Below, piece after piece: positions 38,795 to 56,433 of a stretch of DNA of 64,000 nt. The first letter of the stretch is position 1; every line of letters starts with the position of its first letter. The notes under the pieces were generated by a model. It worked only from the letters and a program-made list of their open reading frames with translations, was not told the origin of the DNA and did not search any database. Source of the DNA: a virus (lineage: Duplodnaviria; Heunggongvirae; Uroviricota; Caudoviricetes); the IMG/VR virus record IMGVR_UViG_3300032116_012976; one strand, written 5' to 3'. The translations under genes and the position numbers were made by a program.

Positions 38795-38795
38795 C

Positions 38796-38951: not shown

Positions 38952-38956
38952 GTATA

Positions 38957-39317: not shown

Positions 39318-39323
39318 ATCTAT

Positions 39324-39400
39324 TGGTCGGAGTACGAGGGTTCGAACCTCGGACCTCCTGGTCCCAAACCAGGCGCACTACCAGGCTGTGCTATACTCCG
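39324..39400 (-). tRNA. tRNA-Pro(TGG)
   Basis: Acceptor cggagta/tactccg, anticodon loop TTTGGGA, CCA encoded. Confidence 0.8.
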
Positions 39401-39406
39401 TGTATT

Positions 39407-39625
39407 TTATTTTACTTTGGGTTCTTGACTTTTGTCAAGTTCATGGGGTTCAGCAAATCTTGTGCCGTGGCCCAGATTCCAACTGTCTGCTGTGAAAATT
39501 TTTACAGGCTTCCAGTAACGACTTATGATGTTGTTGACAGCAACAGCCGCCGCCACAATCACTACAAATCCTATTGCTGTCAAAATACTACCAGCTAAGA
39601 ATACAGCCGCTTGATCCATGTCCAT
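39407..39625 (-). CDS. small membrane protein (72 aa) inside the tRNA array
   Basis: One clear hydrophobic helix AAVFLAGSILTAIGFVVIVAAAVAV. Confidence 0.5.
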   Translation of the reverse strand: MDMDQAAVFLAGSILTAIGFVVIVAAAVAVNNIISRYWKPVKIFTADSWNLGHGTRFAEPHELDKSQEPKVK

Positions 39626-39638
39626 TGTTTGTTCCTTG

Positions 39639-39712
39639 TGGAGCAGGGTAGGGGAATCGAACCCCTCGCTTTAGCTTGGAAGGCTAAGGTATTACCACTA
39701 TACGAACCCTGC
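39639..39712 (-). tRNA. tRNA-Gly(TCC)
   Basis: Acceptor gcagggt/accctgc, anticodon loop CTTCCAA, CCA encoded. Confidence 0.8.
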
Positions 39713-39760
39713 GTTAAAATACTTATTATACAACACTCAGACACTGTTGTAAAGATCATT

Positions 39761-39835
39761 TGGTTGCCATGGACAGTTTCGAAATGTCGACCTATCGCTT
39801 ATCAAGCGATTGCTCTTCCTCTGAGCTACACGGCA
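39761..39835 (-). tRNA. tRNA-Ile(GAT)
   Basis: Anticodon stem atcgc/gcgat, loop TTGATAA, CCA encoded. Confidence 0.75.
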
Positions 39836-39841
39836 AAAACT

Positions 39842-39915
39842 TGGCACGGGTACTAGGGCTCGAACCTAGAATGACAGAGTCAAAGTCTGTAGTGTTACCA
39901 TTACACTATACCCGA
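39842..39915 (-). tRNA. tRNA-Gln(TTG)
   Basis: Anticodon loop CTTTGAC, unpaired U1-U72 and G73 (Gln-like identity features), CCA encoded. Confidence 0.75.
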
Positions 39916-39927
39916 ACAAAAACTATT

Positions 39928-40002
39928 TGGTGGATGTAAGTAGAGTCGAACTACCACTTGACTCCGTATGAAGGAGGCGCACTACCATTATGCTATACAT
40001 CC
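39928..40002 (-). tRNA. tRNA-Met or Ile2 (CAT)
   Basis: GGATGTA...CCTCC TTCATAC GGAGT... Full cloverleaf. Met versus lysidine-Ile cannot be decided by eye. Confidence 0.7.
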
Positions 40003-40006
40003 ATGT

Positions 40007-40098
40007 TGGTACCCCCACCGGGAGTCGAACCCAGATGAACCAATTATCTGTTGCTTACGGGATATAAATCCGCCGTTTTACCATTAAACTATAGGGGC
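40007..40098 (-). tRNA. 92-nt tRNA with a 22-nt variable region; best-fit anticodon TAT (identity undetermined)
   Basis: GCCCCTA TA GTTT AATGGTA AAAC G GCGGA TTTATAT CCCGT AAGCAACAGATAATTGGTTCAT CTGGG TTCGACT CCCGG TGGGGGT A CCA. The A31-C39 pair is a mismatch. Confidence 0.55.
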
Positions 40099-40103
40099 AT
40101 GTC

Positions 40104-40178
40104 TGGGGTGTCGTATGAGAATCGAACTCATGACAGCGGAATCACAACCCGCGGTTTTGCCACTAAACTAACGTCACC
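40104..40178 (-). tRNA. tRNA-His(GTG)
   Basis: Anticodon loop TTGTGAT, C73 and an encoded G-1 (His hallmarks), CCA encoded. Confidence 0.8.
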
Positions 40179-40267
40179 ATATAGGAACACACTCAGGCGT
40201 AGTAGTTCGTTAGCCCACTAAGATACACGGCTACCACCCGTGTCATTAGTTGAATGTGTTTTTATAT
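40179..40267 (-). ncRNA. clamp-stem element filling the His-Lys tRNA spacer (89 nt)
   Basis: Arms atataggaacacactc (40179..40194) and gaatgtgtttttatat (40252..40267) pair around a ~57-nt insert with an internal hairpin acacgg/ccgtgt. Confidence 0.5.
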
Positions 40268-40341
40268 GGTAGGGGCGCCGGGATTCGAACCCGAAATTGG
40301 CAGATTAAAAGTCTGCTGTGATACCGTTTCACCACACCCCC
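40267..40341 (-). tRNA. tRNA-Lys(TTT)
   Basis: Anticodon stem gcaga/tctgc, loop CTTTTAA, CCA encoded. Confidence 0.8.
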
Positions 40342-40402
40342 GGTATCTTGTCACTCTTGTCACTATTCATGACAGACTCTCCTTTTTAAAATAAGTATTT
40401 GA

Positions 40403-41527
40403 ATGAACAAATATTGTCCAAAACCATTTGTTAGTATTCATATGTATACTGATAAAGATCTCAATCCAACTGTTAGGCCTTGTTGCAATTACAAACCTAT
40501 CAAGCAGTACGCAACGATTAATGATTATTTGCAATCATCTGAACTAGCGTCTCTTCAGCAACATTTGCTTACAAAAGAATCATTGCCAGATGGATGCAAG
40601 GCATGCAAAGTAGACGAAGATAATAACTTGCCTAGTATCCGAAACAAGTATATTAAAGTGTTTGAGCATGAAACCAAAACTAAAATTGTTGACTTGGAAA
40701 TTTTCCCTGGCAACGCATGTAATCTCAGTTGCTTGTCGTGCAATCCTTCTCATAGTACCAAATCAGGTCAGGAATATGCCAAACTTGGATGGATTAAACA
40801 ATCAATAGTGATCAATCACGAAGATCATGCACTTGAAGTTATTAAACAGTTGCCAGACCTTAAATCAATAGGTTTTATTGGCGGCGAATTTTTTGTAACC
40901 AAACACAATATTGAATTGCTCGATGCGGTTATTGAAAAAAATCTTAAAACACGAATTATTACCAATGCCACTCAACTAACCAAAAAACATCTTGAGCGGT
41001 TACAAAAAATATCTGACCTTGATGTGATGGTTAGTGTAGACGGTACTGGGCCAACATTTGAATTTTTACGCTATCCGGCACAATGGTCAGTTGTGCAATC
41101 AAACATTGTTGCACTACAACAGGCATTGCCCGGAGCAAAGATACATTTGTCGGCAGTGTTGCAATTTTTAAATTTGCAAAATATCATTGAACTGTTTGAA
41201 TACGCCAATGTCCGTCGACTGCCATTTAATGTGATCCCTTTATCTTATCCTGTTTGGCTACAGTCAGAAGTGCTTACCACTCTCGAACGTCAGCAGTTGA
41301 TTGCAGTTATACAAAAACAACTAACAGTTGCAAAACTTACCAAAACACAAAAACAGTTAATGACTGATACATGTAGTATGCTAGAAACAATACAGCACTC
41401 ACCTGCTCAACGAGAACAGTTTGTGTCTCGAACAAGCCAGCTGATTCGACTGCGCAACATCACACAACACACAATCAACTCAGTGTTTGGTGTGCTAGAA
41501 AATTTAGCGCAAGAAGTTATACAATAG
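40403..41527 (+). CDS. radical SAM enzyme (type B paralog) embedded in the tRNA array
   Basis: YCPKPFVSI...RPCC, CNLSCLSCN, IGGEFFV. Confidence 0.8.
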   Translation: MNKYCPKPFVSIHMYTDKDLNPTVRPCCNYKPIKQYATINDYLQSSELASLQQHLLTKESLPDGCKACKVDEDNNLPSIRNKYIKVFEHETKTKIVDLEIFPGNACNLSCLSCNPSHSTKSGQEYAKLGWIKQSIVINHEDHALEVIKQLPDLKSIGFIGGEFFVTKHNIELLDAVIEKNLKTRIITNATQLTKKHLERLQKISDLDVMVSVDGTGPTFEFLRYPAQWSVVQSNIVALQQALPGAKIHLSAVLQFLNLQNIIELFEYANVRRLPFNVIPLSYPVWLQSEVLTTLERQQLIAVIQKQLTVAKLTKTQKQLMTDTCSMLETIQHSPAQREQFVSRTSQLIRLRNITQHTINSVFGVLENLAQEVIQ

Positions 41528-41567
41528 CCAGGGACCTAACTCGTCAAGGGAGAGTATGGCTATGTGT

Positions 41568-41645
41568 TGGTACCACCTGAGAGATTCGAACTCCCCGCCC
41601 CTGCGTTCGTAGCACAGTGCTCTAATCCAAATGAGCTAAGGTGGT
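41568..41645 (-). tRNA. tRNA-Arg(ACG)
   Basis: Acceptor accacct/aggtggt, anticodon loop CTACGAA, CCA encoded. Confidence 0.75.
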
Positions 41646-41653
41646 GTATTGAA

Positions 41654-41853
41654 TTTGAGAGTAGTAGCATCACTGTTATTGCTACCATTGACCCGTGTAA
41701 TAAAGCCGGCCGGGAGGGTGATACGTCACTTGGAATACTTAACACACAGATTGATTACTTAGTTGTGTACGGAATCACGCCGCCCGTGCTTTACACTAGG
41801 TTGACCTTCGAAGAATCTTCCTAGCGTGTCTTTCTCTTGCTGACACTCTCAAA
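41654..41853 (-). ncRNA. 200-nt clamped spacer element between tRNA-Arg(ACG) and tRNA-Thr(TGT)
   Basis: Arms tttgagagt (41654..41662) and actctcaaa (41845..41853) pair. No ORF. Internal hairpins include gtagca/tgctac and ctagg/cctag. Confidence 0.4.
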
Positions 41854-41856
41854 ACT

Positions 41857-41930
41857 TGGTGCCCCACGACAGAATCGAACTGCCATCACAGGATTACAAA
41901 ACCAGTGTACTACCATTGTACTAGTAGGGC
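41857..41930 (-). tRNA. tRNA-Thr(TGT)
   Basis: GCCCTAC TA GTAC AATGGTA GTAC A CTGGT TTTGTAA TCCTG... Two U-U mismatches in the anticodon stem. CCA encoded. Confidence 0.65.
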
Positions 41931-41936
41931 GAATTG

Positions 41937-42026
41937 TGGTGGAAGACTAGGGAGTCGAACCCTATGACCCTATTACTAGAATCTACAGATTAGCAATCTG
42001 CTGCATTACCGTCCTGCCCGTCTTCC
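41937..42026 (-). tRNA. tRNA-Ser(GCT), class II
   Basis: 90 nt, acceptor ggaagac/gtcttcc, anticodon loop TTGCTAA, CCA encoded. Confidence 0.8.
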
Positions 42027-42031
42027 TGACT

Positions 42032-42107
42032 TGGCTCCCCAGCGTGGGATCGAACCACGGACACCTTGATTAACAGTCAAGTGCAACTACCGCTGTGCTA
42101 CTAGGGA
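42032..42107 (-). tRNA. tRNA-Asn(GTT)
   Basis: Anticodon stem cttga/tcaag, loop CTGTTAA, G73, CCA encoded. Confidence 0.8.
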
Positions 42108-42147
42108 ATAATCTACTTAGTAGGCACTCGAGCCTACTACAAAAATA

Positions 42148-42240
42148 TGGTGGAGCAACTTGGAGTCGAACCAAGAATGTTTACCACGAGGGGACGGATT
42201 TACAGTCCGCCGATGCACACGCCATAGCATCAATTGCTCC
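42148..42240 (-). tRNA. tRNA-Tyr(GTA), class II
   Basis: 93 nt, acceptor ggagcaa/ttgctcc, D stem GATG/CATC, anticodon loop CTGTAAA, 18-nt variable region, CCA encoded. Confidence 0.75.
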
Positions 42241-42245
42241 ATATT

Positions 42246-42320
42246 TGGTGGACCGGCGGGGGATCGAACCCCGACTAAAGGCTTGCAAAGCCCCTGTGCT
42301 CCCATTATCACTACCAGCCC
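42246..42320 (-). tRNA. tRNA-Ala(TGC)
   Basis: Anticodon loop TTTGCAA. The acceptor stem carries the G3:U70 Ala identity pair. CCA encoded. Confidence 0.8.
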
Positions 42321-42326
42321 AAATTT

Positions 42327-42400
42327 TGGCATCCCGGGAGGGACTCGAACCCCCACGAACGGTTTTGGAGACCGTCATGCTGCCATTACACCACCGAGAC
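42327..42400 (-). tRNA. tRNA-Trp(CCA)
   Basis: Anticodon stem acggt/accgt, loop CTCCAAA, G73, CCA encoded. Confidence 0.8.
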
Positions 42401-42408
42401 ATAATTTT

Positions 42409-42431
42409 AACACACTCTTGCGAATGTGTGT
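42409..42431 (-). ncRNA. GCAA-capped hairpin, minimal member of the clamp-stem family, 8 nt 5' of tRNA-Trp
   Basis: Minus strand acacattc-GCAA-gagtgtgt: 8 bp with one G:U. The same position is a C:A mismatch on the plus strand. Confidence 0.6.
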
Positions 42432-42432
42432 A

Positions 42433-42482
42433 TTAAAACATTCTAAACTACTTAGGCTGCCTGTTTGTAAAGAATGTTTTAA
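42433..42482 (-). ncRNA. 12-bp perfect clamp hairpin with 26-nt loop
   Basis: ttaaaacattct (42433..42444) pairs with agaatgttttaa (42471..42482). Confidence 0.5.
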
Positions 42483-42582
42483 TACGCTCGGATTTTTTTA
42501 TGTACAAGAACATAAGCCATCCCCGAGGCCGCCCATTTGTAGTTTAGAGTGATACAGGCTCGCGTTGCCGTTGCACTAAATG

Positions 42583-42610
42583 AAAAAACCCAGGGTTTTT
42601 ACGCCTGGGT
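42583..42610 (-). terminator. rho-independent terminator inside the ORF-free block
   Basis: acccagg...cctgggt hairpin followed, on the minus strand, by TTTTTT. Confidence 0.65.
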
Positions 42611-42818
42611 CCTTGGGTAAGATACGGTTGTATACTACTTAGGACCCTCTGCCTCCTGGAATGCTATTCATGCGACCATAGGCGTGTGACCAAACTGGTG
42701 TCTGGGCAAACTTGGGTAGCAGTGAACAATATTGTGTTTTCATCATAAGTCCTATTGTACAGTATTTACCTTTTGAGGTCAACCACTGTGTTAAAGTTAT
42801 TTAGCCTTTCGGCTGAAT

Positions 42819-42893
42819 TGGTTGCGGGGGAAGGAATCGAACCTCCGTCTCCCAGGTTATGAGCCTGGTGGTCTACCGCTGACGTACCCCGCG
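42819..42893 (-). tRNA. initiator tRNA-fMet(CAT)
   Basis: C1-A72 mismatch at the acceptor end (bacterial initiator hallmark), anticodon loop CTCATAA with a G-C-rich stem base, CCA encoded. Confidence 0.75.
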
Positions 42894-42904
42894 ATTGAAT
42901 TATT

Positions 42905-42986
42905 TATATAGAAACACACTCTATGCTTGGGGAACAATTCATTGAATTGAGCAACCACCAACGGGTACGGAGTGCGTTTGTATATA
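42905..42986 (-). ncRNA. clamp-stem element 11 nt 5' of tRNA-fMet (82 nt)
   Basis: Arms tatatagaaacacactc (42905..42921) and gagtgcgtttgtatata (42970..42986), 15 of 17 positions paired. Confidence 0.5.
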
Positions 42987-42993
42987 AAGTGGC

Positions 42994-44010
42994 GGACTGA
43001 GAATACATCCTAACCCAGTAACACCTCGGACATTATTACAAACCTTGCGAGTCTGCTTTCTTCCGATTTCCACTGCAACCATATTGCTATGTATCACAGT
43101 CTGTTACCAGTATCGCCGTTTTTAAAGACAGGCAGTAGTCTTGTCATCACATGCTACTCTACACCATCTATCCCGTTGACCTTTAGAGCCATTCACTGTC
43201 GCTAAACAGTTACGAAACTTCCAGTATAAACAGATTTCACCTTGCGAGTTACGTCTGACTGTATTGCCTTGCGGCTACAGCATTAGATACTTTTCACACA
43301 TGACCGAGTCAGTCTTTGCTTTTATGTTAGATAGTGGTTTTGAAGCCACAGCCTATTCCTTAACAGGGAATTGCTCTACGATGAGCTATATCAACCTACT
43401 GCGATGTGCTGACTCAGTTGCTTCATACTCTTTTGGAATACAAAATACAACACACCACGTTCCTTTTGTCTTGCGAACTACTCAGACGTCTTTTGCGATC
43501 AGTGTCGGGTCTCGGCTTTCGCGTACCTCCACCAACCACTCAAACTGCATACGAGCCCTTGGGTGCAACCCCTCGGACCGATACGCTACCCTTTCTCATA
43601 CCAATTAACTGGGCTGGTTTTGTATAGAAGTCAGCACCACCTGTTACTTTTCTGCAACTCCGGTTACCCTTGCGGGCCGGTAAGTTACAGCTCTTTCCTA
43701 TACTCCCAGCGTCATTGTTACAACCACCGGTCTTATCAGTGATCGGATCCTCACGGACCTGAGCAGGCTTGTTTACATGAACCATTGCTGGCGGACTTAT
43801 GTAGGCATACATCCTTTGGCTGGGTCACCCCAGTTATTCTTCGTACAGCTGGGCGAACCATACTGCACAGGACAATAAACTGCCCTATGTATCTATTGTA
43901 AGACAAACGTCTTTTGTTGTCAAACAGTTTTGGATAAATTTGTTGTTTATCTATCCAAAATAGTCTGTAACAGTTTTCTGCAGTCGTGTTACAGTGGGCA
44001 AATAAGTACC
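42994..44010 (-). ncRNA. candidate large structured ncRNA (~1 kb), class unknown (GOLLD/ROOL-like context)
   Basis: No credible ORF in an otherwise gene-dense window. Five CGCAAG (GCAA tetraloop) and two GTGA-capped hairpins on the minus strand, plus many local stems. Flanked by tRNAs. Confidence 0.4.
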
Positions 44011-44014
44011 CCAC

Positions 44015-44986
44015 ATGATCACTGAAATCTTAACCTATCACCACAGTCTCGACTGGAACATTGAACAATTCGTTGATAGCACATGTCTAGCAAACATTGT
44101 TCAGCCACACTGGCCAATGGTAACTTCTTCCAAAGGAGGATTGATACCAACAAATAAACCCAGCCGAGACTTTTTTGAGCTCAATAAAAAACGAGGACGT
44201 CCTACTGAACTTAGGAACAGTACCATTGACGCCTTGGTCAGTCTTGTGGCAACAAAATTGCATCTCAACGGATTTGTTACGAATGTGGTAGCAGAATGCA
44301 GTGGAAGCATGCATGCCTTGTACACTGCATCCATGGTGAGCTTGCAACACCAATTACCAGTGATTGTTTTTTGTGCTGATAATTTAGTTGATGACGAACT
44401 TCACATGTGGCGATTTGCCAGTATGGGTGCATTGGATCAATCCTCAGGAAGAGCATTTGACTCAACCAGTACTGGATTTCGAATGGGTAGAGGCATGGCT
44501 GCAATGTTGATAAAACATCCAAGTGTAAAATTCAACATGAGTGCATTTGCCACAATCAGCAATTATATCTTTCGTACCAACCCCACACTCATAGCCAATC
44601 CAGGTGATGCGCACCAATTGGCCAGAGATATTTCTGGCATCAATTTTGACACCATTGATTTTTGGAATGCACATGCAACAGGCACTCCAGTGGGAGATCA
44701 ATTTGAGTACAATGTTTTTAATTCTTTAGTTCACAAAGACATACCTATTGTCAGCTACAAAAGCCGCATAGGGCACTGTATCTCAGCCAGCGGCGCCATT
44801 GAAATGTGCATGAGTTTTGACGATTACCGTGCAAAAACCCTAAGACCCAATGTGTTAGCTGGTGATCTCATAGTCAAAGATTCAAGGATCATCGTAGATG
44901 CTGTGCCGTTTCCGGGCAAACGCATACTCAAGGCCAATTTTGGATTTGGCGGCAAAAACAGTTTTTGCCAAATTGACATTGAATAG
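44015..44986 (+). CDS. beta-ketoacyl-ACP synthase I/II-like (short, 323 aa)
   Basis: Cys-His-His triad context: AECSGSMHALY, NAHATGTPVGD, KSRIGHCISASGAIE. C-terminal FGFGGKNS. N-terminal region is shorter than FabB/FabF. No obvious RBS. Confidence 0.75.
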   Translation: MITEILTYHHSLDWNIEQFVDSTCLANIVQPHWPMVTSSKGGLIPTNKPSRDFFELNKKRGRPTELRNSTIDALVSLVATKLHLNGFVTNVVAECSGSMHALYTASMVSLQHQLPVIVFCADNLVDDELHMWRFASMGALDQSSGRAFDSTSTGFRMGRGMAAMLIKHPSVKFNMSAFATISNYIFRTNPTLIANPGDAHQLARDISGINFDTIDFWNAHATGTPVGDQFEYNVFNSLVHKDIPIVSYKSRIGHCISASGAIEMCMSFDDYRAKTLRPNVLAGDLIVKDSRIIVDAVPFPGKRILKANFGFGGKNSFCQIDIE

Positions 44987-44990
44987 ATTC

Positions 44991-45140
44991 TATAGTCAAG
45001 CACCGAGAGATGCTCAATTTATGCGTCCTCCGCTAAGAGTGCAATAGCCGATAGCAGTTATATTAGGATCCGTTCCCGGCCGGTTGGACCCGAATAGCGT
45101 AAGCGTCCTTACACGATACCTTTATCGGTGCTTGACTATA
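44991..45140. ncRNA. 150-nt element closed by a perfect 16-bp clamp, directly after the KAS stop codon
   Basis: tatagtcaagcaccga (44991..45006) pairs with tcggtgcttgactata (45125..45140). The interior has gc-GTAA-gc, ccggccgg and gcg/cgc stems. Confidence 0.45.
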
Positions 45141-45173
45141 AAAACTAAAAGTTCGGATTTGAAAATCAAATCC
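45141..45173 (-). terminator. possible terminator of the upstream minus-strand RNA
   Basis: ggatttga-aaa-tcaaatcc hairpin (45155..45173) followed, on the minus strand, by T-rich gaacTTTTagTTTTTat. Confidence 0.45.
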
Positions 45174-45590
45174 TCCCACTGCTAACTACTGCTTCCCAAT
45201 TTATCGTCCATCGGCACCCGTGGTAGGGCTTGCGATGCTCATCGGCCCTGAGTTCTGGCTCAGGTGATCCTTGGGATAGGACTGCTGGGCCTTGTCCTGC
45301 CCAGCATCAGGAAAATTAGTTGCTCTGCATCCCCCGGCGGTAATTGTAGTGCATCATCTCTTGGGTTGCCCCGCAATTCTCACACACCTTCCACCCGCTT
45401 CCCGACAGGGACCGCTATCGTGTTGCTAACGGCCTTTCGGTAAGAAGACTACCACCCTTGAGAGTCACCTCACTTCTTATCCTGCGGGTCACAGTATCCG
45501 CTAACCAAGCGGAACGTCGGGGAGAAGCCACGGTTGCAGGACCTAGTGCTCTTGCGAGGAAGTGTCCAGGCGATGTGGCTTCAAACTTGA
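45174..45590 (-). ncRNA. candidate structured ncRNA (~420 nt), class unknown
   Basis: ORF-free. Hairpins cctgag/ctcagg, tgctggg/cccagca, agggc/gccct, tccgc/gcgga. Two more CGCAAG on the minus strand (plus CTTGCG at 45229 and 45551). Confidence 0.35.
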
Positions 45591-45679
45591 GGCATCATGT
45601 GGGATTCGAACCCACGCAAGAAAACCTTGATGATCATTCAAGGTTGAAGCAAACCACACTCCGTTACATCCTATGACGC
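45591..45679 (-). ncRNA. tRNA-like element A (89 nt; canonical acceptor and T arm, non-canonical core, no CCA)
   Basis: GCGTCAT...GTGGG TTCGAAT CCCAC ATGATGC C. The core is an 8-bp hairpin with loop ATGATCA. No D-arm could be folded. Confidence 0.4.
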
Positions 45680-45687
45680 CATAAACT

Positions 45688-45778
45688 TGGTGGACAACAA
45701 TGGGAATCTAACCCACTTCTTCCTCGTATGCTATTACGAAGTTTCATACCAGCCTCAGGTAATTGACACATCATGTCC
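45688..45778 (-). ncRNA. tRNA-like element B (91 nt; degenerate)
   Basis: T-arm GTGGG TTAGATT CCCAT, 5-bp acceptor, CCA encoded. No canonical anticodon arm (7-bp stem CTTCGTA/TACGAGG with a 6-nt loop). Confidence 0.35.
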
Positions 45779-45785
45779 ATAAACT

Positions 45786-45860
45786 TGGCGGTCCCAGGGG
45801 GTAACGATCCCCCTCCTCAGCAGTGACAGTGCTGTGTGCGTCCATGAACACCTTGAGACC
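45786..45860 (-). tRNA. tRNA-Asp(GTC)
   Basis: GGTCTCA AG GTGT TCATGGAC GCAC A CAGCA CTGTCAC TGCTG AGGA GGGGG ATCGTTA CCCCC TGGGACC G CCA. Confidence 0.75.
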
Positions 45861-46063
45861 AAATTAGGATAAGCTACTGGGTTCCACGCCAGCCCTTAAT
45901 TGAGCAGTTACTCTGTCCATCTCATTTATTCAAAGTCTGTGTGCAGTGAGATTCTGCCTATCAGAGTCTGTAAGGGTAGTCTCCATCCTTACGCTTACGG
46001 TCTTCTGCCACCGGATCTCTATCGCTAATCAAACGCTACTTTAACGAAAGTAGTAACGGGATT

Positions 46064-46138
46064 TGGTAGAGCGTAGGGGAATCGAACCCCTCTTACAGGC
46101 GTGAAAGGCTTGTGTCCTAACCGATAGACGAACGCTCC
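46064..46138 (-). tRNA. tRNA-Glu(TTC)
   Basis: G1:U72, T-arm agggg/cccct, anticodon loop CTTTCAC, CCA encoded. Confidence 0.8.
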
Positions 46139-46147
46139 ATAGTTCAC

Positions 46148-46376
46148 TATATGAAAACACATTAGGGAAGTTCTTGACACGCATCACCAACTTGCATCAA
46201 GACCTCATTACAGGCCCAGTAGTTCCGCCGCCTTCCTGGAGTTTGGTGTAGCCTTATCCCTCACGCTCGATGGTGTCTCGCGCTACTCTTAGGCCCTCCT
46301 GCTTCATGGGTATCCGGCTCGAATCAGCCTTTGTTCACCCCTAACGGACTAGGTAACCCTAATGTGTTTACATATA
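46148..46376 (-). ncRNA. clamp-stem element 9 nt 5' of tRNA-Glu (229 nt)
   Basis: Arms tatatgaaaacacattaggg (46148..46167) and ccctaatgtgtttacatata (46357..46376), 19 of 20 paired, enclosing ~190 nt without an ORF. Confidence 0.5.
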
Positions 46377-46473
46377 GTGCCCAGAACTTAATCTGGGGCA
46401 CTATACAAAATTAAATTTTTAACGAACTTCAAAGTAGTTTCGATCAACTGCCTTTGTTTTCTAACTAGTCTCT

Positions 46474-46502
46474 AGTATAGCATCTCCTGCTTTACTGGTC
46501 AA
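46474..46502 (-). promoter_or_regulatory. sigma70-type promoter TTGACC-N17-TATACT (TGn) reading into the tRNA/ncRNA array
   Basis: Minus strand: ttgaccagtaaagcaggagatgcTATACT. Confidence 0.6.
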
Positions 46503-46571
46503 CTTGTTTTGTAAATGCCCCGCCTTGTTGCAGGGTCTTTACAAACTTCGCTGTTTTTCTAACTTGTGTCT

Positions 46572-46600
46572 AGTATAGCACCAATCCAATTATTGGTCTA
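46572..46600 (-). promoter_or_regulatory. tandem second copy of the promoter (TAGACC-N17-TATACT)
   Basis: Minus strand: tagaccaataattggattggtgcTATACT. About 98 nt upstream of the first copy, with shared flank ttttctaact.gt.tctagtatagca. Confidence 0.45.
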
Positions 46601-46607
46601 CTGCCAT

Positions 46608-46637
46608 AAAAAAACCCGCCTACTTGGCGGGTTTTTT
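46608..46637 (-). terminator. rho-independent terminator after the porin gene (bidirectional shape)
   Basis: acccgcc-tactt-ggcgggt flanked by an A-run and a T-run. Confidence 0.85.
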
Positions 46638-46656
46638 GGTTTGTACTACTTCTGTT

Positions 46657-47547
46657 TTAGAACTGTACGACCAACCCGCCTGCTACTTGTTTGACATCAG
46701 TGGCTGCTGAGGTTCCCTCAACTGTACGATACAAAACTTGTGCATAGGTCTTTTTGCTGAAAGCATACTCAGCACCTACGTTGTAACTCTTGATGCCATT
46801 TTCAATGCGACCATAGCTGGCCTTCACTGTGACTGGTCCACCAAGTTTGTGTGCCACGCCGACCAACTGAGCACGGTTGGTGTTGGCAGCAACGCCTTTG
46901 TTGTCGCTTGCGCTGGCAAACACAGTGGTTGCACCAAATTTAGCACGAGCAGCCAACACGTCACTGGTTTCTGCGCCAGCTTCGTAACGAGCATAAGTCA
47001 ACACAGCAGGTCCAACTGCGGCAATCACGGATGCGGCATAAGGATCAGCGGCAGTGCCAACAGCACCAGTGCTACGATCAAAGTTAGCAGAGACATTGCC
47101 AAAGTTCACAGAAGTGAAAGCGGCATTGCTCAAACGCAAACCACGCAGGTTATGCACGTCGGCAGCTGAGCTACCAATCAATGTGCCAAATGGATCATTG
47201 TCGCTGATGGCCAAGAAGTGAGTGTGAACATTGCGACCAAGATCAACGCTACCCATTTTGTGAGCAATACCCACGGTGCTTTGGCGATCGCCAAGTCTAG
47301 TGTCAGTACCAGTGTCTGGGCTGTTGGCTTGGATGCCGGTCTCGTATGTGGCACGAGCTGTTAATCCGCCACCTAAGTTTTCAGTAGCACGAATGCCAAA
47401 GTGACTCAAGTCATTGGCCATGCCTTGCACGGTGGAAGCACCAGTTTTGGTGTTGTCAAGGTAAGTGCCAACACGACCATAGATACCAACTTGTGCGCTT
47501 GCAACACCAGCAACTGCCAGGGTCAACGCAATTAGAACTTTCTTCAT
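46657..47547 (-). CDS. outer-membrane porin (Gram-negative trimeric porin family)
   Basis: Signal peptide MKKVLIALTLAVAGVASAQV, alternating beta-strand pattern, C-terminal ...GGLVVQF with terminal Phe. RBS aaggaaa. Confidence 0.8.
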   Translation of the reverse strand: MKKVLIALTLAVAGVASAQVGIYGRVGTYLDNTKTGASTVQGMANDLSHFGIRATENLGGGLTARATYETGIQANSPDTGTDTRLGDRQSTVGIAHKMGSVDLGRNVHTHFLAISDNDPFGTLIGSSAADVHNLRGLRLSNAAFTSVNFGNVSANFDRSTGAVGTAADPYAASVIAAVGPAVLTYARYEAGAETSDVLAARAKFGATTVFASASDNKGVAANTNRAQLVGVAHKLGGPVTVKASYGRIENGIKSYNVGAEYAFSKKTYAQVLYRTVEGTSAATDVKQVAGGLVVQF

Positions 47548-47595
47548 AAGTAATTTTTCCTTGTTAATGAAATGATCAAATGTCGATCATAGAGT

Positions 47596-47625
47596 ATTAT
47601 ATAGCACAAACACTGAGAATGTCAA
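47596..47625 (-). promoter_or_regulatory. sigma70-type promoter TTGACA-N18-TATAAT for the porin gene
   Basis: Minus strand: ttgacattctcagtgtttgtgctaTATAAT. Confidence 0.55.
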
Positions 47626-47651
47626 AGAAAATGGCTACTTTCGCAGCCATT
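47622..47651 (-). terminator. terminator at the end of the tmRNA coding piece
   Basis: aatggct-gcgaaagt-agccatt hairpin followed, on the minus strand, by ttttcttt. Confidence 0.65.
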
Positions 47652-47813
47652 TTGGTGGTTTCTGTTACGAGGTATTTCCTACCCTAGACGACCTTAAGCG
47701 GCCATCAAGAATTTTTCATCATTTGCAGATAAAAGTTTTGCTTGATTTACGGTCATCGCCTACCGTGCTGTCCACTCTGTTACTCTTTGCCCTGTCGAAT
47801 CTAGGTCAGGCCC
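47630..47813 (-). ncRNA. ssrA: tmRNA coding piece (two-piece / permuted ssrA)
   Basis: Starts GGGCCTGACCTAGATTCGAC (compare the standard GGGGCUGAUUCUGGAUUCGAC). Contains the tag frame. The 3' boundary is approximate. Confidence 0.8.
47694..47726 (-). other. ssrA: tmRNA tag reading frame ANDEKFLMAA*
   Basis: GCA AAT GAT GAA AAA TTC TTG ATG GCC GCT TAA. The ANDE...AA pattern is typical of proteobacterial tags. Confidence 0.8.
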
Positions 47814-48028
47814 ATCATAAAGAAACTTAATCTACGCTTAATGTTGTTAACAACAAGCATAATATTGGAAAAACAATTAATAAAAATTTTGCTAAATTTT
47901 CCATATTACCATAACTCACAGTTTTTTATTTTCTCTTCGTCCAATGTGGTATCACGTGTAAAATAAAATACACCAAACACTAACCAAAATAACAAAAATA
48001 AAACATAACCTATCATTAAACTTCCTTA

Positions 48029-48093
48029 TGGTGGACCTGGGGGGATTCGCACCCCCGTCCAGAACACTTTTCTCTCGGCTTCATACAGCAATA
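48029..48093 (-). ncRNA. ssrA: tmRNA acceptor piece (T-arm + 3' acceptor strand + ACCA)
   Basis: ...GGAC GGGGG TGCGAAT CCCCC CAGGTCC A CCA. Pairs with GGGCCTG of the coding piece, giving G3:U70. The 5' boundary is inferred from the promoter. Confidence 0.75.
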
Positions 48094-48099
48094 ACTCGC

Positions 48100-48128
48100 A
48101 GTATATATTTATTCTTTGGGCTTGTCAA
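48100..48128 (-). promoter_or_regulatory. sigma70-type promoter TTGACA-N17-TATACT for the tmRNA precursor
   Basis: Minus strand: ttgacaagcccaaagaataaataTATACT. Confidence 0.6.
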
Positions 48129-48278
48129 CTGCTTTGGAGATGATGTCATACACTTGTGCGTATGCATCAGTAATTTTGTCTAGTTGTTGTTCCGACACCA
48201 AGTCTGTGTCCTCCAGACTGACCAAGTCTCGGGCTAGATTTTCTTGTAGTTTTTTTATGGGATTGAGCACATACCTAT

Positions 48279-48812
48279 TTATTCATCCCCGCTATCTACT
48301 GGGATCCAGCCCAACTTAAAAAAGTCTTCCTGGATTTCTTCTGTGACATGTCCTTCGGGTACATATCTTTTAACACCGTCAGCATCACCATTGCCCAGTC
48401 CATCGCCTATGCCCGAACAGTACCAATCAATATAGTCACCTTGTTCACGCATGTCGGCAACAATACCCCCGGCATAGCGCCACGAACAACTGTAGGTCTC
48501 TCCCTTTAGCAAAGGCCATACTTCGTTGCGTTGCCAGTCTTGATTGCACAAGGCTGCGTAGATGTTTTGAGCGTAGGTATCGCTGGCCTTGGCTTTGTCG
48601 CAAACCCACTTGGTGCTACGCAAATCATATTCAAGATTGTTTTCTCGCCACCGTTCGTCGGCTTCGCGTTGAGCCTGATGTTCGTTGATCATGCGTTCAA
48701 GATCTAAAGCTCGTTGAACATCTTCGTCAGTGGCAGGATCTCCTCCTTCCGCAATGACATCTTCAATTCTGCATTGACTGTGAAAGGTTCCGCGAGTAGG
48801 ACTTTTGTTCAT
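48279..48812 (-). CDS. hypothetical protein
   Basis: Start moved to MNKSPTRG, because the longer ORF-track version (to 48890) runs through tRNA-Leu(TAA). Confidence 0.55.
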   Translation of the reverse strand: MNKSPTRGTFHSQCRIEDVIAEGGDPATDEDVQRALDLERMINEHQAQREADERWRENNLEYDLRSTKWVCDKAKASDTYAQNIYAALCNQDWQRNEVWPLLKGETYSCSWRYAGGIVADMREQGDYIDWYCSGIGDGLGNGDADGVKRYVPEGHVTEEIQEDFFKLGWIPVDSGDE

Positions 48813-48818
48813 AATGTT

Positions 48819-48904
48819 TGGTACCAGAGACGGGACTCGAACCCGTATGCCCTTGCAAGCGGCAGATTTTAAGTCTGCTGTGTATACCATTCCACCACTC
48901 TGGC
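48819..48904 (-). tRNA. tRNA-Leu(TAA), canonical class II
   Basis: 86 nt: GCCAGAG TG GTGG AATGGTATA...GCAGA CTTAAAA TCTGC + 15-nt variable arm + ACGGG TTCGAGT CCCGT CTCTGGT A CCA. Confidence 0.8.
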
Positions 48905-48922
48905 TTTGCGTTATTTAATACA

Positions 48923-48997
48923 TGGTCCGGCGTAGAGGAATCGAACCTCTATAATGACTTTAGAAGAATCATGTCCTATCCGTTGAACGAACGCCAG
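48923..48997 (-). tRNA. tRNA-Arg(TCT)
   Basis: CTGGCGT TC GTTC AACGGATA GGAC A TGATT CTTCTAA AGTCA TTAT AGAGG TTCGATT CCTCT ACGCCGG A CCA. Confidence 0.8.
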
Positions 48998-49002
48998 ATG
49001 TT

Positions 49003-49077
49003 TGGTGGGCCAACTTGGAATTGAACCAAGACTCGACCGATTATGAGTCGGTTGCTTTACCATTAAGCTATTGGCCC
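49003..49077 (-). tRNA. tRNA-Met or Ile2 (CAT)
   Basis: GGGCCAA TA GCTT AATGGTA AAGC A ACCGA CTCATAA TCGGT CGAGT CTTGG TTCAATT CCAAG TTGGCCC A CCA. Confidence 0.75.
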
Positions 49078-49510: not shown

Positions 49511-49539
49511 ATTATACAAAAATGCTAAGTGTTTGTCAA
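49511..49539 (-). promoter_or_regulatory. sigma70-type promoter TTGACA-N17-TATAAT
   Basis: Minus strand: ttgacaaacacttagcatttttgTATAAT. Overlaps the 3' end of the desaturase ORF. Confidence 0.55.
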
Positions 49540-50300
49540 CGGTCTTTGTCAGTTCTTACCAATTGAATTAAGCGGTATCCAGGATCAAATTCCCACCATT
49601 TTTTGCCAAACTGTGGATCTGCGGCAGCGGCGTGATGATTGTTGTGCCAGCCCTCTCCACCAGTCAAATATCCTACCAGCAGGTTATTTGAACTTTGATC
49701 ACGTGTGTCAAAATTTCTATATCCTGATGGACTGTGAGTGAGAGAGTTGGTCAGTGAACTGGCATGTTGCAACAATAGTGACGGAACCAAATAAGCATAC
49801 ACTACTGCATAAGGATCTATCATGTAAACTGCCACCCCGACCAAGATAGTGTACAACCAATGATTGTAGTACATGTGCATGTGAAATTTGGATTTCACAA
49901 TCTCTGGAGCATAACTTAATTTTGGAGTAGCAGGTGTGAGTCTAAATTGCACGGCTAGATAACCGTATACCGCAGGTGAGTGCGGATCATCTTTTGTGTC
50001 AGAGTGTCTATGATGCGCTCGATGTATTGCTACCCAATACAACATTGGTAAAGTTGTGCCAGGAATAGCAATCAATGTTCCTAGATATTCAAACCATTTT
50101 GGTGCTTGAAAAGAACGATGGGTGATCAGCCGATGAACTGTTACAGTTCCGACTACCATCTTGATATAGTAGACCAACAGACATATTGCCCACTGCCATG
50201 CTTCACTGTTGAAGATAAAGTAGACCAGGATCACATGTAGACAGGCACTGTATGCAATCATTTCGTTGTGCGAAGGCACAAACCAGTTTTTCTTTTTCAT
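49536..50300 (-). CDS. membrane fatty-acid desaturase (third copy)
   Basis: HRLITHRSF, HRAHHRHSDTKDDPHSP, GEGWHNNHHAA. Confidence 0.85.
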   Translation of the reverse strand: MKKKNWFVPSHNEMIAYSACLHVILVYFIFNSEAWQWAICLLVYYIKMVVGTVTVHRLITHRSFQAPKWFEYLGTLIAIPGTTLPMLYWVAIHRAHHRHSDTKDDPHSPAVYGYLAVQFRLTPATPKLSYAPEIVKSKFHMHMYYNHWLYTILVGVAVYMIDPYAVVYAYLVPSLLLQHASSLTNSLTHSPSGYRNFDTRDQSSNNLLVGYLTGGEGWHNNHHAAAADPQFGKKWWEFDPGYRLIQLVRTDKDR

Positions 50301-54879: not shown

Positions 54880-55205
54880 CCGTTTTGCTTCACGCGAACG
54901 TCCGTGTTCAGCGCAGGTGCATACTTTTGTATTAACTCGCGCTCCAACTTATGTGCGGCATCTTTGCCACGCACAATGTCCACGATAGCCACGTTCATTG
55001 CTTCAGTACCGTTTGCGCGAATTGCTTCGTACAAGTTCCAGCCTTTGTCTTCTGTGCGGCTACGGTAGATGTGCTTGTTCACACGGCTACGGAGCGACAT
55101 GTTGATTGTGCGCTGGGTTTTTGCGGTAATACCAATGTAGTACTCAAATCCAATTTGGATCATGTACACTATGTGGCTGCGATCAGTACGTTTCTTTCTC
55201 ATCAT
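54876..55205 (-). CDS. GIY-YIG nuclease-domain protein (109 aa, free-standing)
   Basis: [17 protein letters not shown] (GIY...YIG), [16 protein letters not shown]. The ATG lies 6 nt after the -10 hexamer. Confidence 0.6.
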
Positions 55206-55211
55206 GTGTGT

Positions 55212-55240
55212 ATTATAGCATTTTGGGCATTTTTGGTCAA
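55212..55240 (-). promoter_or_regulatory. sigma70-type promoter TTGACC-N17-TATAAT (TGn), apparently leaderless
   Basis: Minus strand: ttgaccaaaaatgcccaaaatgcTATAATacacacATGATG. Confidence 0.7.
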
Positions 55241-55267
55241 CCGAAATGCCTGTTGCAAAAATACAAC

Positions 55268-55307
55268 AAAAGTACTACTTTTTTTAGCCCTAAAAGTAGT
55301 ACTTTTT
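55268..55307. terminator. 12-bp perfect hairpin flanked by A- and T-runs (bidirectional terminator shape) between divergent units
   Basis: agtactactttt (55271..55282) pairs with aaaagtagtact (55292..55303). Confidence 0.55.
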
Positions 55308-55317
55308 TCAGCAAAAA

Positions 55318-56433
55318 TTGAATATTTGGTCAACCAAAGTGTGGGCTATAAGTAACAGCATGGACACTGATCTTTACCACGACATTTACACTAGCGAAAT
55401 TTTTGACACCAGCCAATGCATATGGCACGAAAATAATACCATGAATTTCTTTCACAGTTTGTTGATCAAACTGGGATATGAGCCTGTGCAAGATGGACAC
55501 AAAACATGGCGCCGTGGAGACCGTACTGTGGTGCTGTGTCTGGTAGACGACTACATCTCTACCACATACGACTATGACACACCAGTGGCATATCGATTTG
55601 ATCGCAATACCACAGTGATCACAGACAACTATGTTACCAGTCCAACCTTGTACAAGGTGTTTCAACTGCCATCCAGTTTCTTTGGCATCTATCATTATGA
55701 ACCCAAGCTGACCAATTTCAATCCCACACGCAGATTTAATTTTTCAGTCAATCGCATTGATTCCAAACGCATGTTGACCATGCTGGAAATTGCGTTGCGT
55801 TGTGAAAAGTATCCAGATGCTGAAACGTTGGACTTTATCAATTTCAACTGCTGGAGTTGGGAAGGTGACAATTCCACAGCTGAAGGATGCAATCAAAATT
55901 TCAGAGATGCCTACGAAAAACTAGAGCCACAATACAAAGCAGTGTATGGTGACACTTTTGAACGCATTGCTCAAACCATGCCATTTAAAAATCATGACAT
56001 GTCAGTTGAGCAGGCACACCTCAGTGCTTATGTGAACATGGTAATTGAAACCTACTCCAGTGACAGTTCAATTGCTCTCAGCGAGAAGATATTCCGTGCA
56101 TTGGTCACTCCGGCACCCTGGCAAGTGTATGCTGGCCGCCATGCAGTGGCCTATCTGGAAAGTCTAGGATTTGACACACTCAAAGACATTGTCAATCACA
56201 GTTACGATGTCATGATGGAAAACAAAACTGCTGCCTATGGTGACAAACTGGTTGAATACATCTTTGCTGGCGCAGATACATTTACCAAACTCAGTGCTAT
56301 GGATCGCACAGAACTGCGACATCGTTGCCTTACTGCCAGCAGACAAAATCAAAAGGTGCTCAAAGACATGAGTGCTCGTTGGCCTGCAGAGTTTGCCGCT
56401 TGGTTGCCGGCTGTTATAGACCATATCAAATAA
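55318..56433 (+). CDS. putative glycosyltransferase, GT10-like TEK-motif family, paralog 5
   Basis: VNMVIETYSSDSSIALSEKIFRALVTPAPWQVYAGRHAVAYLESLGFDTLKDIVNHSYD. Start 55318 or 55360 is ambiguous. Confidence 0.45.
   Translation: MNIWSTKVWAISNSMDTDLYHDIYTSEIFDTSQCIWHENNTMNFFHSLLIKLGYEPVQDGHKTWRRGDRTVVLCLVDDYISTTYDYDTPVAYRFDRNTTVITDNYVTSPTLYKVFQLPSSFFGIYHYEPKLTNFNPTRRFNFSVNRIDSKRMLTMLEIALRCEKYPDAETLDFINFNCWSWEGDNSTAEGCNQNFRDAYEKLEPQYKAVYGDTFERIAQTMPFKNHDMSVEQAHLSAYVNMVIETYSSDSSIALSEKIFRALVTPAPWQVYAGRHAVAYLESLGFDTLKDIVNHSYDVMMENKTAAYGDKLVEYIFAGADTFTKLSAMDRTELRHRCLTASRQNQKVLKDMSARWPAEFAAWLPAVIDHIK

Follow-up and report, generated by a model that had tools for sequence, protein, structure and literature searches.

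What, if anything, is carried by the segment that separates the two halves of a circularly permuted transfer-messenger RNA (tmRNA; ssrA) gene? The question is raised by a locus on the minus strand of a 64,000-nucleotide (nt) stretch of viral DNA (hereafter the window; IMG/VR record IMGVR_UViG_3300032116_012976, Caudoviricetes), where the 3' tRNA-like half of a tmRNA (the acceptor piece) stands upstream of the 5' half with the tag reading frame (the coding piece), and an intervening segment (IVS) lies between them (Table 1). A preliminary description of the locus had treated this segment as an AT-rich spacer. The base composition holds, but not the implied passivity, as a covarying helix closes the segment and at least one conserved micro-protein open reading frame (ORF) lies within it. 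In our judgement the locus is, with good probability, a phage-encoded, circularly permuted tmRNA gene whose IVS doubles as a small mRNA.

The permuted gene and the helix at the ends of its intervening segment

The permuted order was recovered both by ARAGORN, which called a 'tmRNA* (permuted)' at 47603..48121 with the 3' domain upstream of the 5' domain and the tag ANDEKFLMAA, and by the Rfam model RF04321 (tmRNA_permuted), which matched over its full length (model positions 1-213) with 115 bits (gathering threshold [GA], 47; E = 1e-21). These are the searches that the preliminary description had suggested, and its account of the parts is borne out throughout: the promoter TTGACA-N17-TATACT (11/12 consensus positions), the acceptor-side half ending in CCA, the spacer of about 215 nt, the 5' half, the tag frame (GCA AAT GAT GAA AAA TTC TTG ATG GCC GCT TAA), the G3:U70 pair, and a hairpin with a T-run as terminator. 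Its overall proposal of a permuted, two-piece ssrA gene therefore stands as to architecture, promoter, and terminator; the correction concerns the carrier, which is a phage and not a bacterium.

Table 1. Features of the permuted tmRNA locus (window coordinates) and permuted tmRNAs in isolate phage records (coordinates of the accession given)
Feature	Position	Strand	Details
ORF53 (53-amino-acid [aa] ORF)	48109..48270	-	upstream context; 3' end holds the tmRNA -35 box
Sigma-70-type promoter of tmRNA gene	48100..48128	-	TTGACA (48128..48123), 17-nt gap, TATACT (48105..48100)
Acceptor piece (3' tRNA-like half)	48029..48093	-	ARAGORN 3' tRNA domain; RF04321 alignment from 48090; fold
Acceptor piece end	A76 at 48029	-	GGACGGGGGTGCGAATCCCCCCAGGTCCACCA; from the sequence
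Trailer strand	48018..48032	-	A73, C74, C75, A76 and IVS +1..+11 (UAAGGAAGUUU)
IVS	47814..48028	-	215 nt, 25% GC; contains Shine-Dalgarno (SD) motif, orfA, orfB, IVS parts of both closing-helix strands
orfA	47906..48016	-	36 codons, MIGYVLFLLFWLVFGVFYFTRDTTLDEEKIKNCELW; AUG at IVS +13, 4 nt after AAGGAAG
orfB (probable)	47827..47904	-	25 codons, MENLAKFLLIVFPILCLLLTTLSVD; AUG 1 nt past the orfA stop
Leader strand	47814..47828	-	AAGUUUCUUUAUGAU; ends at the inferred RNase P cut between 47814 and 47813
Coding piece	47626..47813	-	begins GGGCCTGACCTAGATTCGAC at 47813; ARAGORN 5' tRNA domain, RF04321, RF01850, fold
Tag reading frame	47694..47726	-	resume codon GCA (47726..47724); ANDEKFLMAA, stop TAA
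Intrinsic terminator	47622..47653	-	AAAAUGGCU-GCGAAAGU-AGCCAUUUU, then CUUUG; hairpin 47653..47628, 9-bp stem, T-run
Unannotated permuted tmRNA, OK149171.2	~55000..55400
Unannotated permuted tmRNA, ON758385.1	~167200..167700
Unannotated permuted tmRNA, ON331942.1	~34700..35120

The acceptor piece, the 5' end of which was placed from the promoter position and probably lies near 48093, carries the 5' strand of helix P2 (UGCUGU, from 48090), GGAC, a T-arm (GGGGG-UGCGAAU-CCCCC; stem 48056..48052 and 48044..48040, loop 48051..48045), CAGGUCC (48039..48033), and ACCA (48032..48029). In the coding piece, GGGCCUG (47813..47807) is followed by the D-analogue (..GAUUCGAC..), the 3' strand of P2 (ACAGCA), a hairpin (CGGU-AGGCGAUGA-ACCG), the tag frame, one post-tag hairpin, and the terminator. 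GGGCCUG and CAGGUCC form a 7-bp acceptor stem with an encoded CCA, in which G3 (47811) and U70 (48035) make the identity pair of alanyl-tRNA synthetase (AlaRS), and P2 is paired both in the RF04321 alignment and in the minimum free energy (MFE) fold. The fold of a 468-nt precursor (z = -3.7 relative to dinucleotide shuffles) recovered the T-arm, P2, and the acceptor stem. Position 55 of the T-arm is G, not U, and is still accepted by the RF04321 covariance model. The -35 box lies within the final codons of ORF53, as it does within the corresponding upstream ORF in two relatives (L267, L266), and the terminator has a bidirectional form, with the promoter of a porin gene beginning at 47625.

As to bacterial lineage, the alphaproteobacterial model RF01849 passed its threshold by a small margin (57.4 bits vs GA 50, over 47651..48132), and the betaproteobacterial model RF01850 (beta_tmRNA) gave 65.2 bits on the coding piece (47626..47870) and a separate 18.7 bits on the acceptor piece without reaching its GA of 84, because the 215-nt IVS is too long for the beta model to bridge. 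The gene resembles the RF01850 family, yet is not classed as a member, and the assignment is ambiguous, as the alpha threshold is passed while the tag and coding piece fit the beta model better. Alpha tags are longer and of a different sequence. The gene fits neither bacterial lineage cleanly and belongs to a phage-borne clade with a beta-like tag and coding piece.

The two ends of the IVS are joined by a leader-trailer helix that prolongs the 7-bp acceptor stem by 15 positions, of which 14 are standard pairs and the remaining one is a mismatch, A(-2)·C74, that is itself conserved; apart from it, all positions pair in the window. Relatives were collected through exact-pattern scans of IMG/VR and of metagenomes, and all frequencies given here refer to that sample only. 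Among 125 unique relatives, the leader UGAU (-4..-1) lies opposite ACCA, with pairing of -1:A73 in 93%, -2:C74 in 2%, -3:C75 in 91%, and -4:A76 in 96%, and leader positions -5..-15 pair with spacer positions +1..+11 in 76% (+1), 86-98% (+2..+10), and 72% (+11), compared to about 40% for the out-of-register control. The pair at -9:+5 covaries across all standard combinations (CG 35, GC 33, AU 21, UA 16, UG 14, GU 4). In the MFE fold the acceptor stem runs on into the helix and the spacer is enclosed, the combined duplex amounting to about 21 bp (-21.9 kcal/mol). Spacers that carry ORFs keep the helix (87-100% pairing at +1..+8), and it recurs in phages isolated on Alcaligenes (QDWS595), Xanthomonas (BUDD), and Stenotrophomonas (QDWS359). 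The covariation of the spacer ends implies that selection acts on one RNA comprising the spacer and both halves, i.e., a single precursor.

Reading frames in the intervening segment

The trailer strand of the helix contains AAGGAAG (48027..48021, IVS +2..+8), an SD-like motif that pairs with UUUCUUU of the leader and is followed by orfA, whose 36-aa peptide is predicted to span the membrane once, near its N-terminus, and ends in a charged tail. Homologues of orfA occur at 11 viral and metagenome loci (including L168, L257, L260, L264, L228, and L261) and comprise seven distinct sequences, the window among them, plus a 5'-truncated copy in L235; a metagenome scan with the orfA pattern gave seven loci. 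All complete copies have exactly 36 codons and stand directly after the CCA of a permuted tmRNA. Copies with 74-77% nucleotide identity lack indels, with synonymous differences per site (pS) near saturation (0.68-0.94) against non-synonymous differences (pN) of 0.13-0.20, and the other two frames over orfA contain 1-4 stops. The window and L168, a locus reached through the tmRNA search independently of the ORF pattern, differ at 25 positions distributed 7/3/15 over the three codon positions (pN/pS 0.19). Among divergent pairs, variable columns are distributed 11/7/24 and pN/pS is 0.13-0.37, a range to be read with the fact that codons 1-15 of pattern-found homologues were forced to amino-acid conservation; codons 16-36 alone (0.17-0.54) and L168 serve as the correction. 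A Pfam search with orfA returned nothing significant. On these comparisons, orfA appears to be a conserved micro-protein gene under purifying selection.

The second frame, orfB, is probably coding, and its stop codon (47829..47827) shares nucleotides with the leader strand at its distal end. The combinations in which the frames occur differ among loci: orfA stands alone in L260 and together with orfB in the window, L228/L258, and L261-263; in L168, L257, L259, and L264 its companion, at the position of orfB, is another transmembrane peptide (35 aa) with a strong SD of its own, which is also the sole occupant of the spacer of L134. A likeness between orfB and a spacer peptide of L147/L253 (MENFSKW...) was too weak for a claim of homology.

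Across the family the spacer behaves as a slot for which two classes of content can be distinguished. About two-thirds of spacers (about 64%) are non-coding and structured (AAGCAUAUU...AGUAUGCUU) and form the same helix from other sequences, e.g., AAGCAUAUU, and about one-third begin with UAAGGAnnUnnAUG, in which the SD-like motif lies on the trailer strand ahead of an ORF. The motif is strongly associated with an early ORF that takes up 60% or more of the spacer (2 x 2 counts 41, 5 and 20, 51; Fisher p = 3e-11), and the gap from motif to start codon peaks at 5 nt. For 27 unique spacers of at least 150 nt, mean ORF coverage was 0.83 in the sense direction, compared to 0.34 for the antisense and 0.36 for dinucleotide shuffles. 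The ORFs usually begin 9-15 nt past the CCA and stop in or just ahead of the conserved leader (..UUAUGAU/GGG, the slash marking the cut), and their products are unrelated among loci: 20-37-aa peptides, many of them hydrophobic, and 101-151-aa proteins without a family match, along with an 86-aa protein matching Pfam CxxCxxCC (26.6 vs a cut-off of 23) and a 111-aa protein matching Pfam GNAT (28.5 vs 27). Diverged pairs point to purifying selection on two of these ORFs as well, the Cys-rich one (pN/pS 0.18) and one of 123 aa (0.15-0.22). No spacer ORF, nor either of the two neighbouring ORFs, had a match in PHROGs.

Slot contents and tmRNA bodies occur in different combinations. Spacers with orfA are joined to tmRNA bodies that differ in T-arm, tag, and coding piece; the spacer of L228 is 98.6% identical to that of the window while its coding piece diverges, and in L228/L258 spacer and acceptor piece together are 97-99% identical to the window, with a coding piece that is wholly different from about 45 nt past the 5' end and includes another pseudoknot 1 (PK1) region. 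Related spacers on different tmRNA bodies indicate that slot and tmRNA recombine independently, and the L228/L258 case points to mosaic recombination inside the tmRNA gene itself. ORF53, located upstream of the tmRNA gene in the window, has a homologue that in L196 and L218 is part of the spacer of the tmRNA gene (L218 spacer ORF: 53% identity over 43 aa, E = 3e-16), so that the same small gene can sit outside or inside the tmRNA gene. Seven viral relatives of ORF53 were found, with part of a tmRNA downstream of the ORF in the five that show one and none in the fetched DNA of L268 and L272.

The tmRNA family that holds these slots is large: the general 3'-domain pattern was found on more than 120 IMG/VR contigs, the exact 32-nt 3' domain of the window on more than 116 IMG/VR viral contigs, and its exact 5' domain on at least 57, with several related contigs 340-350 kb long. 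ARAGORN called 187 permuted tmRNAs in related loci, with tags such as ANDSQFALAA (40 loci), ANDEQFALAA (15), ANDEKFALAA, and ANDERFLMAA. Two features that the preliminary description had regarded as unusual are ordinary in this setting. The T-loop UGCGAAU is the majority form (117/185 relatives), and IVS length, measured by regular expression independently of ARAGORN's search window, spans 4-491 nt (median, 86), with 17/166 loci at or above 215 nt and the window at the 90th percentile among unique spacers; neither a long spacer nor G55 is therefore a mark of something special. The 5'-domain regular expression may miss or mis-pair some loci.

The longest spacer reported by ARAGORN was 254 nt, and tmRNAs with segments of 256-491 nt, carrying ORFs of 36-151 aa, were missed or miscalled (L171, L224, L165/L173/L195/L225/L226/L247, L189, L127, L094/L128/L191/L203, and L168); for L127 the call was wrong (254 nt with an incorrect 5' domain), and tmRNAs with segments of 284-491 nt were missed. 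Several of the large ORFs in these loci share the N-terminus MRI(N/K)E(I/L). Permuted tmRNAs with a long IVS are probably under-represented in tmRNA databases.

Some members depart from the common form. In L261-L263 and L270 the T-loop is non-canonical (either GCGGG-GGCAGUG-CCCGC or CCGGG-GGCAGUU-CCCGG) and the D-analogue is altered (GGAUCGAUUGGGC); these loci either carry the orfA/orfB spacer or occupy the position downstream of ORF53; judged by these changes, their tmRNAs may be decaying or functionally shifted with the cassette retained. In four loci with SD-plus-ORF spacers (L121, L136, L252, and L029), the ORF has no stop in the spacer and continues beyond the RNase P site into the 5' domain of the tmRNA (...MKGLT, then stop), and their processed spacer RNAs would be non-stop mRNAs, i.e., a natural tmRNA substrate. 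Read-through of this kind recalls the control of arfA via trans-translation. In a separate subgroup with the acceptor stem GGGGGUG/CACCUCC (L025, L104, and L106), the spacers lack leader-trailer complementarity and have one frame with a shared peptide-like motif (..YYTExEWSRLG..GPLPxERN..), with no obvious start codon in L025 and L104.

Proposed maturation and competing explanations

In the course of events that we propose, host RNA polymerase would make a single ~470-nt precursor (48093 to ~47626), in which the leader-trailer helix juxtaposes the two halves. RNase P would cut between 47814 and 47813 and the 3' end would be trimmed to CCA at 48029, by default on the analogy of Caulobacter; alternatively, an RNase III-type cut in the helix of about two turns is possible. 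The products would be an acceptor piece of ~65 nt and a coding piece of ~187 nt, held together by the acceptor stem and P2, which host AlaRS could charge via G3:U70 and which, with host SmpB, would rescue stalled ribosomes and append the betaproteobacterial-type tag ANDEKFLMAA. Translation of the IVS would give one or two small membrane peptides and would take place either during transcription, as the SD would be free until the leader strand is made ~200 nt later, or after excision, when a ribosome could open the A-U/G·U-rich end helix; a hairpin mimic of this helix with the first bases of the start codon has a stability of -8.2 kcal/mol. In the folded precursor the helix would mask the SD and part of the start codon. 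In phages generally, small membrane peptides with a single span often act on the integrity of the membrane, on the timing of lysis, or on exclusion. Family-wide, the IVS would act as a swappable slot for structured non-coding RNA or unrelated small genes.

A more far-reaching form of this proposal may be entertained tentatively. The pre-tmRNA would be bifunctional, with a translated mini-mRNA cassette (orfA and probably orfB) whose SD and start are masked by the maturation helix, so that micro-protein synthesis and processing are mechanically coupled: translation would occur only co-transcriptionally or once the helix has opened, and ribosomes terminating in the leader strand would re-open it. 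The slot would then be a hypervariable gene-capture site in a phage-specific lineage, driven by one of the strongest early promoters. We regard this extended version as possible, with the balance somewhat against it.

Several observations count against a translated IVS within a working tmRNA. AAGGAAG is also a strand of the helix, and its conservation alone is no proof of ribosome binding; ORF coverage of spacers shorter than 100 nt is indistinguishable from shuffles; orfB is known from just three near-identical variants (window, L228, and L261) whose differences are mostly non-synonymous; and both the collection of relatives by exact patterns and the forced conservation of codons 1-15 in pattern-found orfA copies bear on the comparisons above. 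The two-piece state, the placement of its ends (48029 and 47813), and the translation of orfA and orfB are all inferred from sequence. For PK1, the CGGU-AGGCGAUGA-ACCG hairpin is seen, a convincing second stem was not identified by eye, and the loop is identical in L168, L257, and L260, leaving no covariation to read. A tblastn search of the window with an approximate E. coli SmpB sequence as query gave a best E of 0.78; with no SmpB gene found in the window by this search, tmRNA function rests on the host.

Part of this evidence can be turned into the view that the tmRNA is real and its spacer purely non-coding, AAGGAAG being a helix strand only and orfA and orfB chance ORFs in T-rich DNA. 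At 25% GC, T-rich codons yield Phe, Leu, and Ile and thus hydrophobic peptides, the motif does pair with UUUCUUU, most family spacers are clearly non-coding and structured, short spacers do no better than shuffles, and the evidence for orfB is weak. Chance does not, however, account for the 36 codons of orfA kept without indels while pS nears saturation, for the stops in its alternative frames, for the near confinement of SD-like motifs to spacers with an ORF at a 4-6 nt gap when non-coding spacers build the helix from other sequences, or for recognisable Pfam domains in long spacers, and we consider a purely non-coding spacer unlikely. The coding content could instead belong to ordinary small phage genes flanked by two tmRNA halves that are independent transcription units, with no single precursor and with ORFs unlinked to maturation. 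Co-transcription is not in principle required for a two-piece tmRNA, the ORF53 family occurs both outside and inside the tmRNA gene, and spacers reach 491 nt with a 151-aa ORF. Such independence is very unlikely in view of the spacer ends, which covary as a helix even with an ORF inside and point to selection on a single RNA, and of the typically exact fit of the ORFs between CCA and leader; a promoter and terminator scan reported no promoter-like or terminator-like site on the minus strand within the IVS of the window.

The remaining explanations concern the standing of the gene as a whole. It might be a decoy or a decaying copy without trans-translation, titrating host SmpB or AlaRS, for example, in the manner proposed for the tmRNA of mycobacteriophage DS6A, a form with only the tRNA-like domain (TLD) that inhibits tmRNA (PMC4131195, PMC11915505). 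The replacement of the near-universal U55 by G, which leaves no pseudouridine at 55, would agree with decay, as would the lack of an evident PK1, the SmpB result, and the degenerate T-loops of some relatives (L261-263, L270). Against this, a resume codon, a 10-codon ANDxxFxxAA-type tag, and a stop are kept in hundreds of relatives with coherent tag variation; the gene has a full tRNA-like domain, P2, its own strong promoter, a terminator, and a high covariance-model score; and G55, as the majority form of a large conserved family, speaks for function rather than decay. We hold a decoy or relic to be highly improbable. It is hardly credible that the window is a bacterial chromosome, or a prophage that carries the host's own ssrA, even though some neighbours look bacterial (a Porin_4 porin, a fatty-acid desaturase, and a ketoacyl synthase), the tag resembles the betaproteobacterial consensus, and one match lies in a bacterial metagenome-assembled genome (MAG). 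Within 13 kb the window has 30 co-oriented tRNA genes and a GOLLD RNA, it has PHROG matches to phage auxiliary genes, the identical 3' domain recurs on viral contigs of which some exceed 340 kb, and isolate phages of Alcaligenes, Xanthomonas, and Stenotrophomonas share the architecture. The acceptor and T-arm signature was found in only 1 of 185,579 bacterial and archaeal species genomes (one per species), on a 23-kb contig labelled as a Haliscomenobacter MAG with tRNA-Met, tRNA-Arg, tmRNA, tRNA-Glu, and tRNA-Asp in the same order as in the window, which identifies it as a related phage contig. A phage-borne tmRNA gene with a probably translated IVS remains the preferred reading.

Relation to known tmRNAs and genomic context

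As a bare gene, the locus would be one more phage two-piece tmRNA, and the helix-closed, ORF-bearing IVS is what appears to be new. Two-piece forms make up 53 of 133 unique phage tmRNAs, mostly aquatic, and include those of Methylophilales phage Melnitz and Pelagibacter phage Mosig (PMC9004378); 79 phage tmRNAs were catalogued in the study that built RF04321 (PMC11915505). The window shares with the Melnitz/Mosig type the permuted order, an early sigma-70-type promoter, the ARAGORN 'tmRNA*' call, and an aquatic, uncultivated-type, myophage-like context with tRNAs. The Melnitz tmRNA, however, is reported to be of the alpha type and to hold a glutamine riboswitch in the 3' domain (PMC9004378), whereas the window has a beta-like tag and coding piece and ORFs in its IVS, and in a sensitive Rfam scan of the tmRNA region the spacer matched neither a riboswitch nor any other known RNA; a CrcZ match in that scan (E = 0.05, 15.8 bits vs GA 95) was taken as noise. 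Searches with blastn and megablast (tmRNA region, 20-kb surroundings, and coding piece) against 50,697 GenBank phage records gave no meaningful match.

A 57-nt T-arm query at E ≤ 10 did find isolate phages in the GenBank phage records. Phages vB_Af_QDWS595 (OK149171), BUDD (ON758385), and vB_Sm_QDWS359 (ON331942) resemble the window in architecture and in a leader-trailer helix ending ..UGAU/GGG, BUDD and QDWS359 also in the acceptor stem GGGCCUG/CAGGUCC. Sequence identity of the isolates to the window is ~83-88% over just 33-42 nt of T-arm and acceptor. All three have ANDxxYA..AA-like tags and lie beside tRNA genes. Unlike in the window, their IVSs (74, 127, and 110 nt, respectively) are non-coding and structured and their T-loops are canonical (UUCGAnU). 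'Hypothetical protein' coding sequences are drawn over the tmRNA in BUDD (same strand) and QDWS359 (opposite strand).

Among bacterial forms, the betaproteobacterial two-piece tmRNA constitutes a third lineage (Sharkady & Williams 2004, as cited in PMC9004378). The coding piece of the window aligns with RF01850 over the 5' domain, the tag, and onwards as far as the terminator hairpin, with the post-tag part reduced to one hairpin and the terminator, and the consensus tag read off the model line, ANDEHFAMAA, is close in form to ANDEKFLMAA; the differences are G55, the ORF-bearing IVS, and an acceptor/T-arm signature that occurs in no bacterial species genome other than the phage-like MAG contig. 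The alphaproteobacterial form (RF01849; Caulobacter, Keiler et al. 2000, as cited in PMC9004378) shares the permuted order and the passed gathering score, and for Caulobacter a single precursor cut by tRNA-processing enzymes is established, but the match here is weak and driven by the tRNA-like domain, and the host clues are betaproteobacterial.

Elements nested in tmRNA genes are known, including a tRNA-Ala in a permuted IVS, a repetitive element, and homing-endonuclease genes in group I introns (PMC11915505). In rRNA operons and other stable-RNA precursors with processing stems or nested genes, as here, a long flanking helix delimits the excised segment and an IVS can host other elements; the window family differs in hosting ordinary small protein genes, with the SD built into the helix, rather than mobile-element genes or RNAs. 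No description of SD-bearing protein genes in a tmRNA IVS, or of the leader-trailer helix, was found in the literature searched, an absence that is no proof of novelty. If the proposal is correct, protein genes housed in a tmRNA gene would add a class to the nested genes known so far, and the excised segment, hitherto treated as waste, would encode conserved micro-proteins that gene callers and tmRNA annotators overlook (membrane peptides, a GNAT protein, and a metal-binding domain rich in Cys). In infection, production of these proteins may be linked to the maturation of a ribosome-rescue RNA, which bears on what phages gain from a tmRNA of their own. The covarying helix, which sequesters the CCA, offers a concrete model for the recognition and cutting of permuted pre-tmRNA. 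The lineage itself is very large, phage-borne, and essentially uncultivated, with hundreds of freshwater viral contigs rather than bacterial species genomes, and is under-reported by standard tools, as ARAGORN misses long spacers and isolate records leave the gene unannotated.

The window is part of a large phage-like genome, not a bacterial chromosome. Its 30 tRNA genes are all on the minus strand (36479..49077) and cover most amino acids; the array includes a full-length GOLLD RNA (RF02032; 42994..43458, minus strand; 204 bits vs GA 150) and a radical-SAM gene (40403..41527). That gene is the fifth of its kind, the others being four successive paralogues at 1686..7779 (plus strand), with an unscanned 339-aa ORF among them, followed by a Nol-like carbamoyltransferase (9547..11037, plus strand); the region 1686..11037 (plus strand) looks like a modification or biosynthesis cluster. 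The window also encodes an asparagine-synthase-like protein, an exonuclease, and a DUF2201/VWA protein matching phrog_1314, a PHROG annotated as HNH endonuclease. Candidate lipid-metabolism auxiliary genes lie in the tRNA region, namely a fatty-acid desaturase (49536..50300, minus strand) and a truncated-looking beta-ketoacyl synthase (44015..44986, plus strand).

Directly downstream of the tmRNA terminator is the Porin_4 porin (46657..47547, minus strand; E = 3e-25), which has a signal peptide, a C-terminal Phe, and a perfect promoter (TTGACA-18-TATAAT, 47625..47596). In the syntenic contig L265 its position is taken by a TctC/Bug periplasmic binding protein (86 bits). The porin, the TctC/Bug protein, and the beta-like tag are indirect hints of a Burkholderiales-type host; a search for the host through bacterial tmRNAs, in the species-genome scan, gave no match other than the phage-like MAG contig.

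A few minor observations concern the tRNA array. Two of the tRNAs are unusually long, tRNA-Ile(UAU) (40007..40098, 92 nt) and tRNA-Tyr (42148..42240, 93 nt), and a tRNA-like Rfam match of 50.6 bits lies inside the GOLLD RNA (43325..43395), where ARAGORN makes no call. From the ARAGORN list of tRNAs, each codon of the tmRNA tag is readable by some tRNA encoded in the window. Near-perfect sigma-70 promoters at 49539, 49114, 48128, and 47625 drive the minus-strand block.

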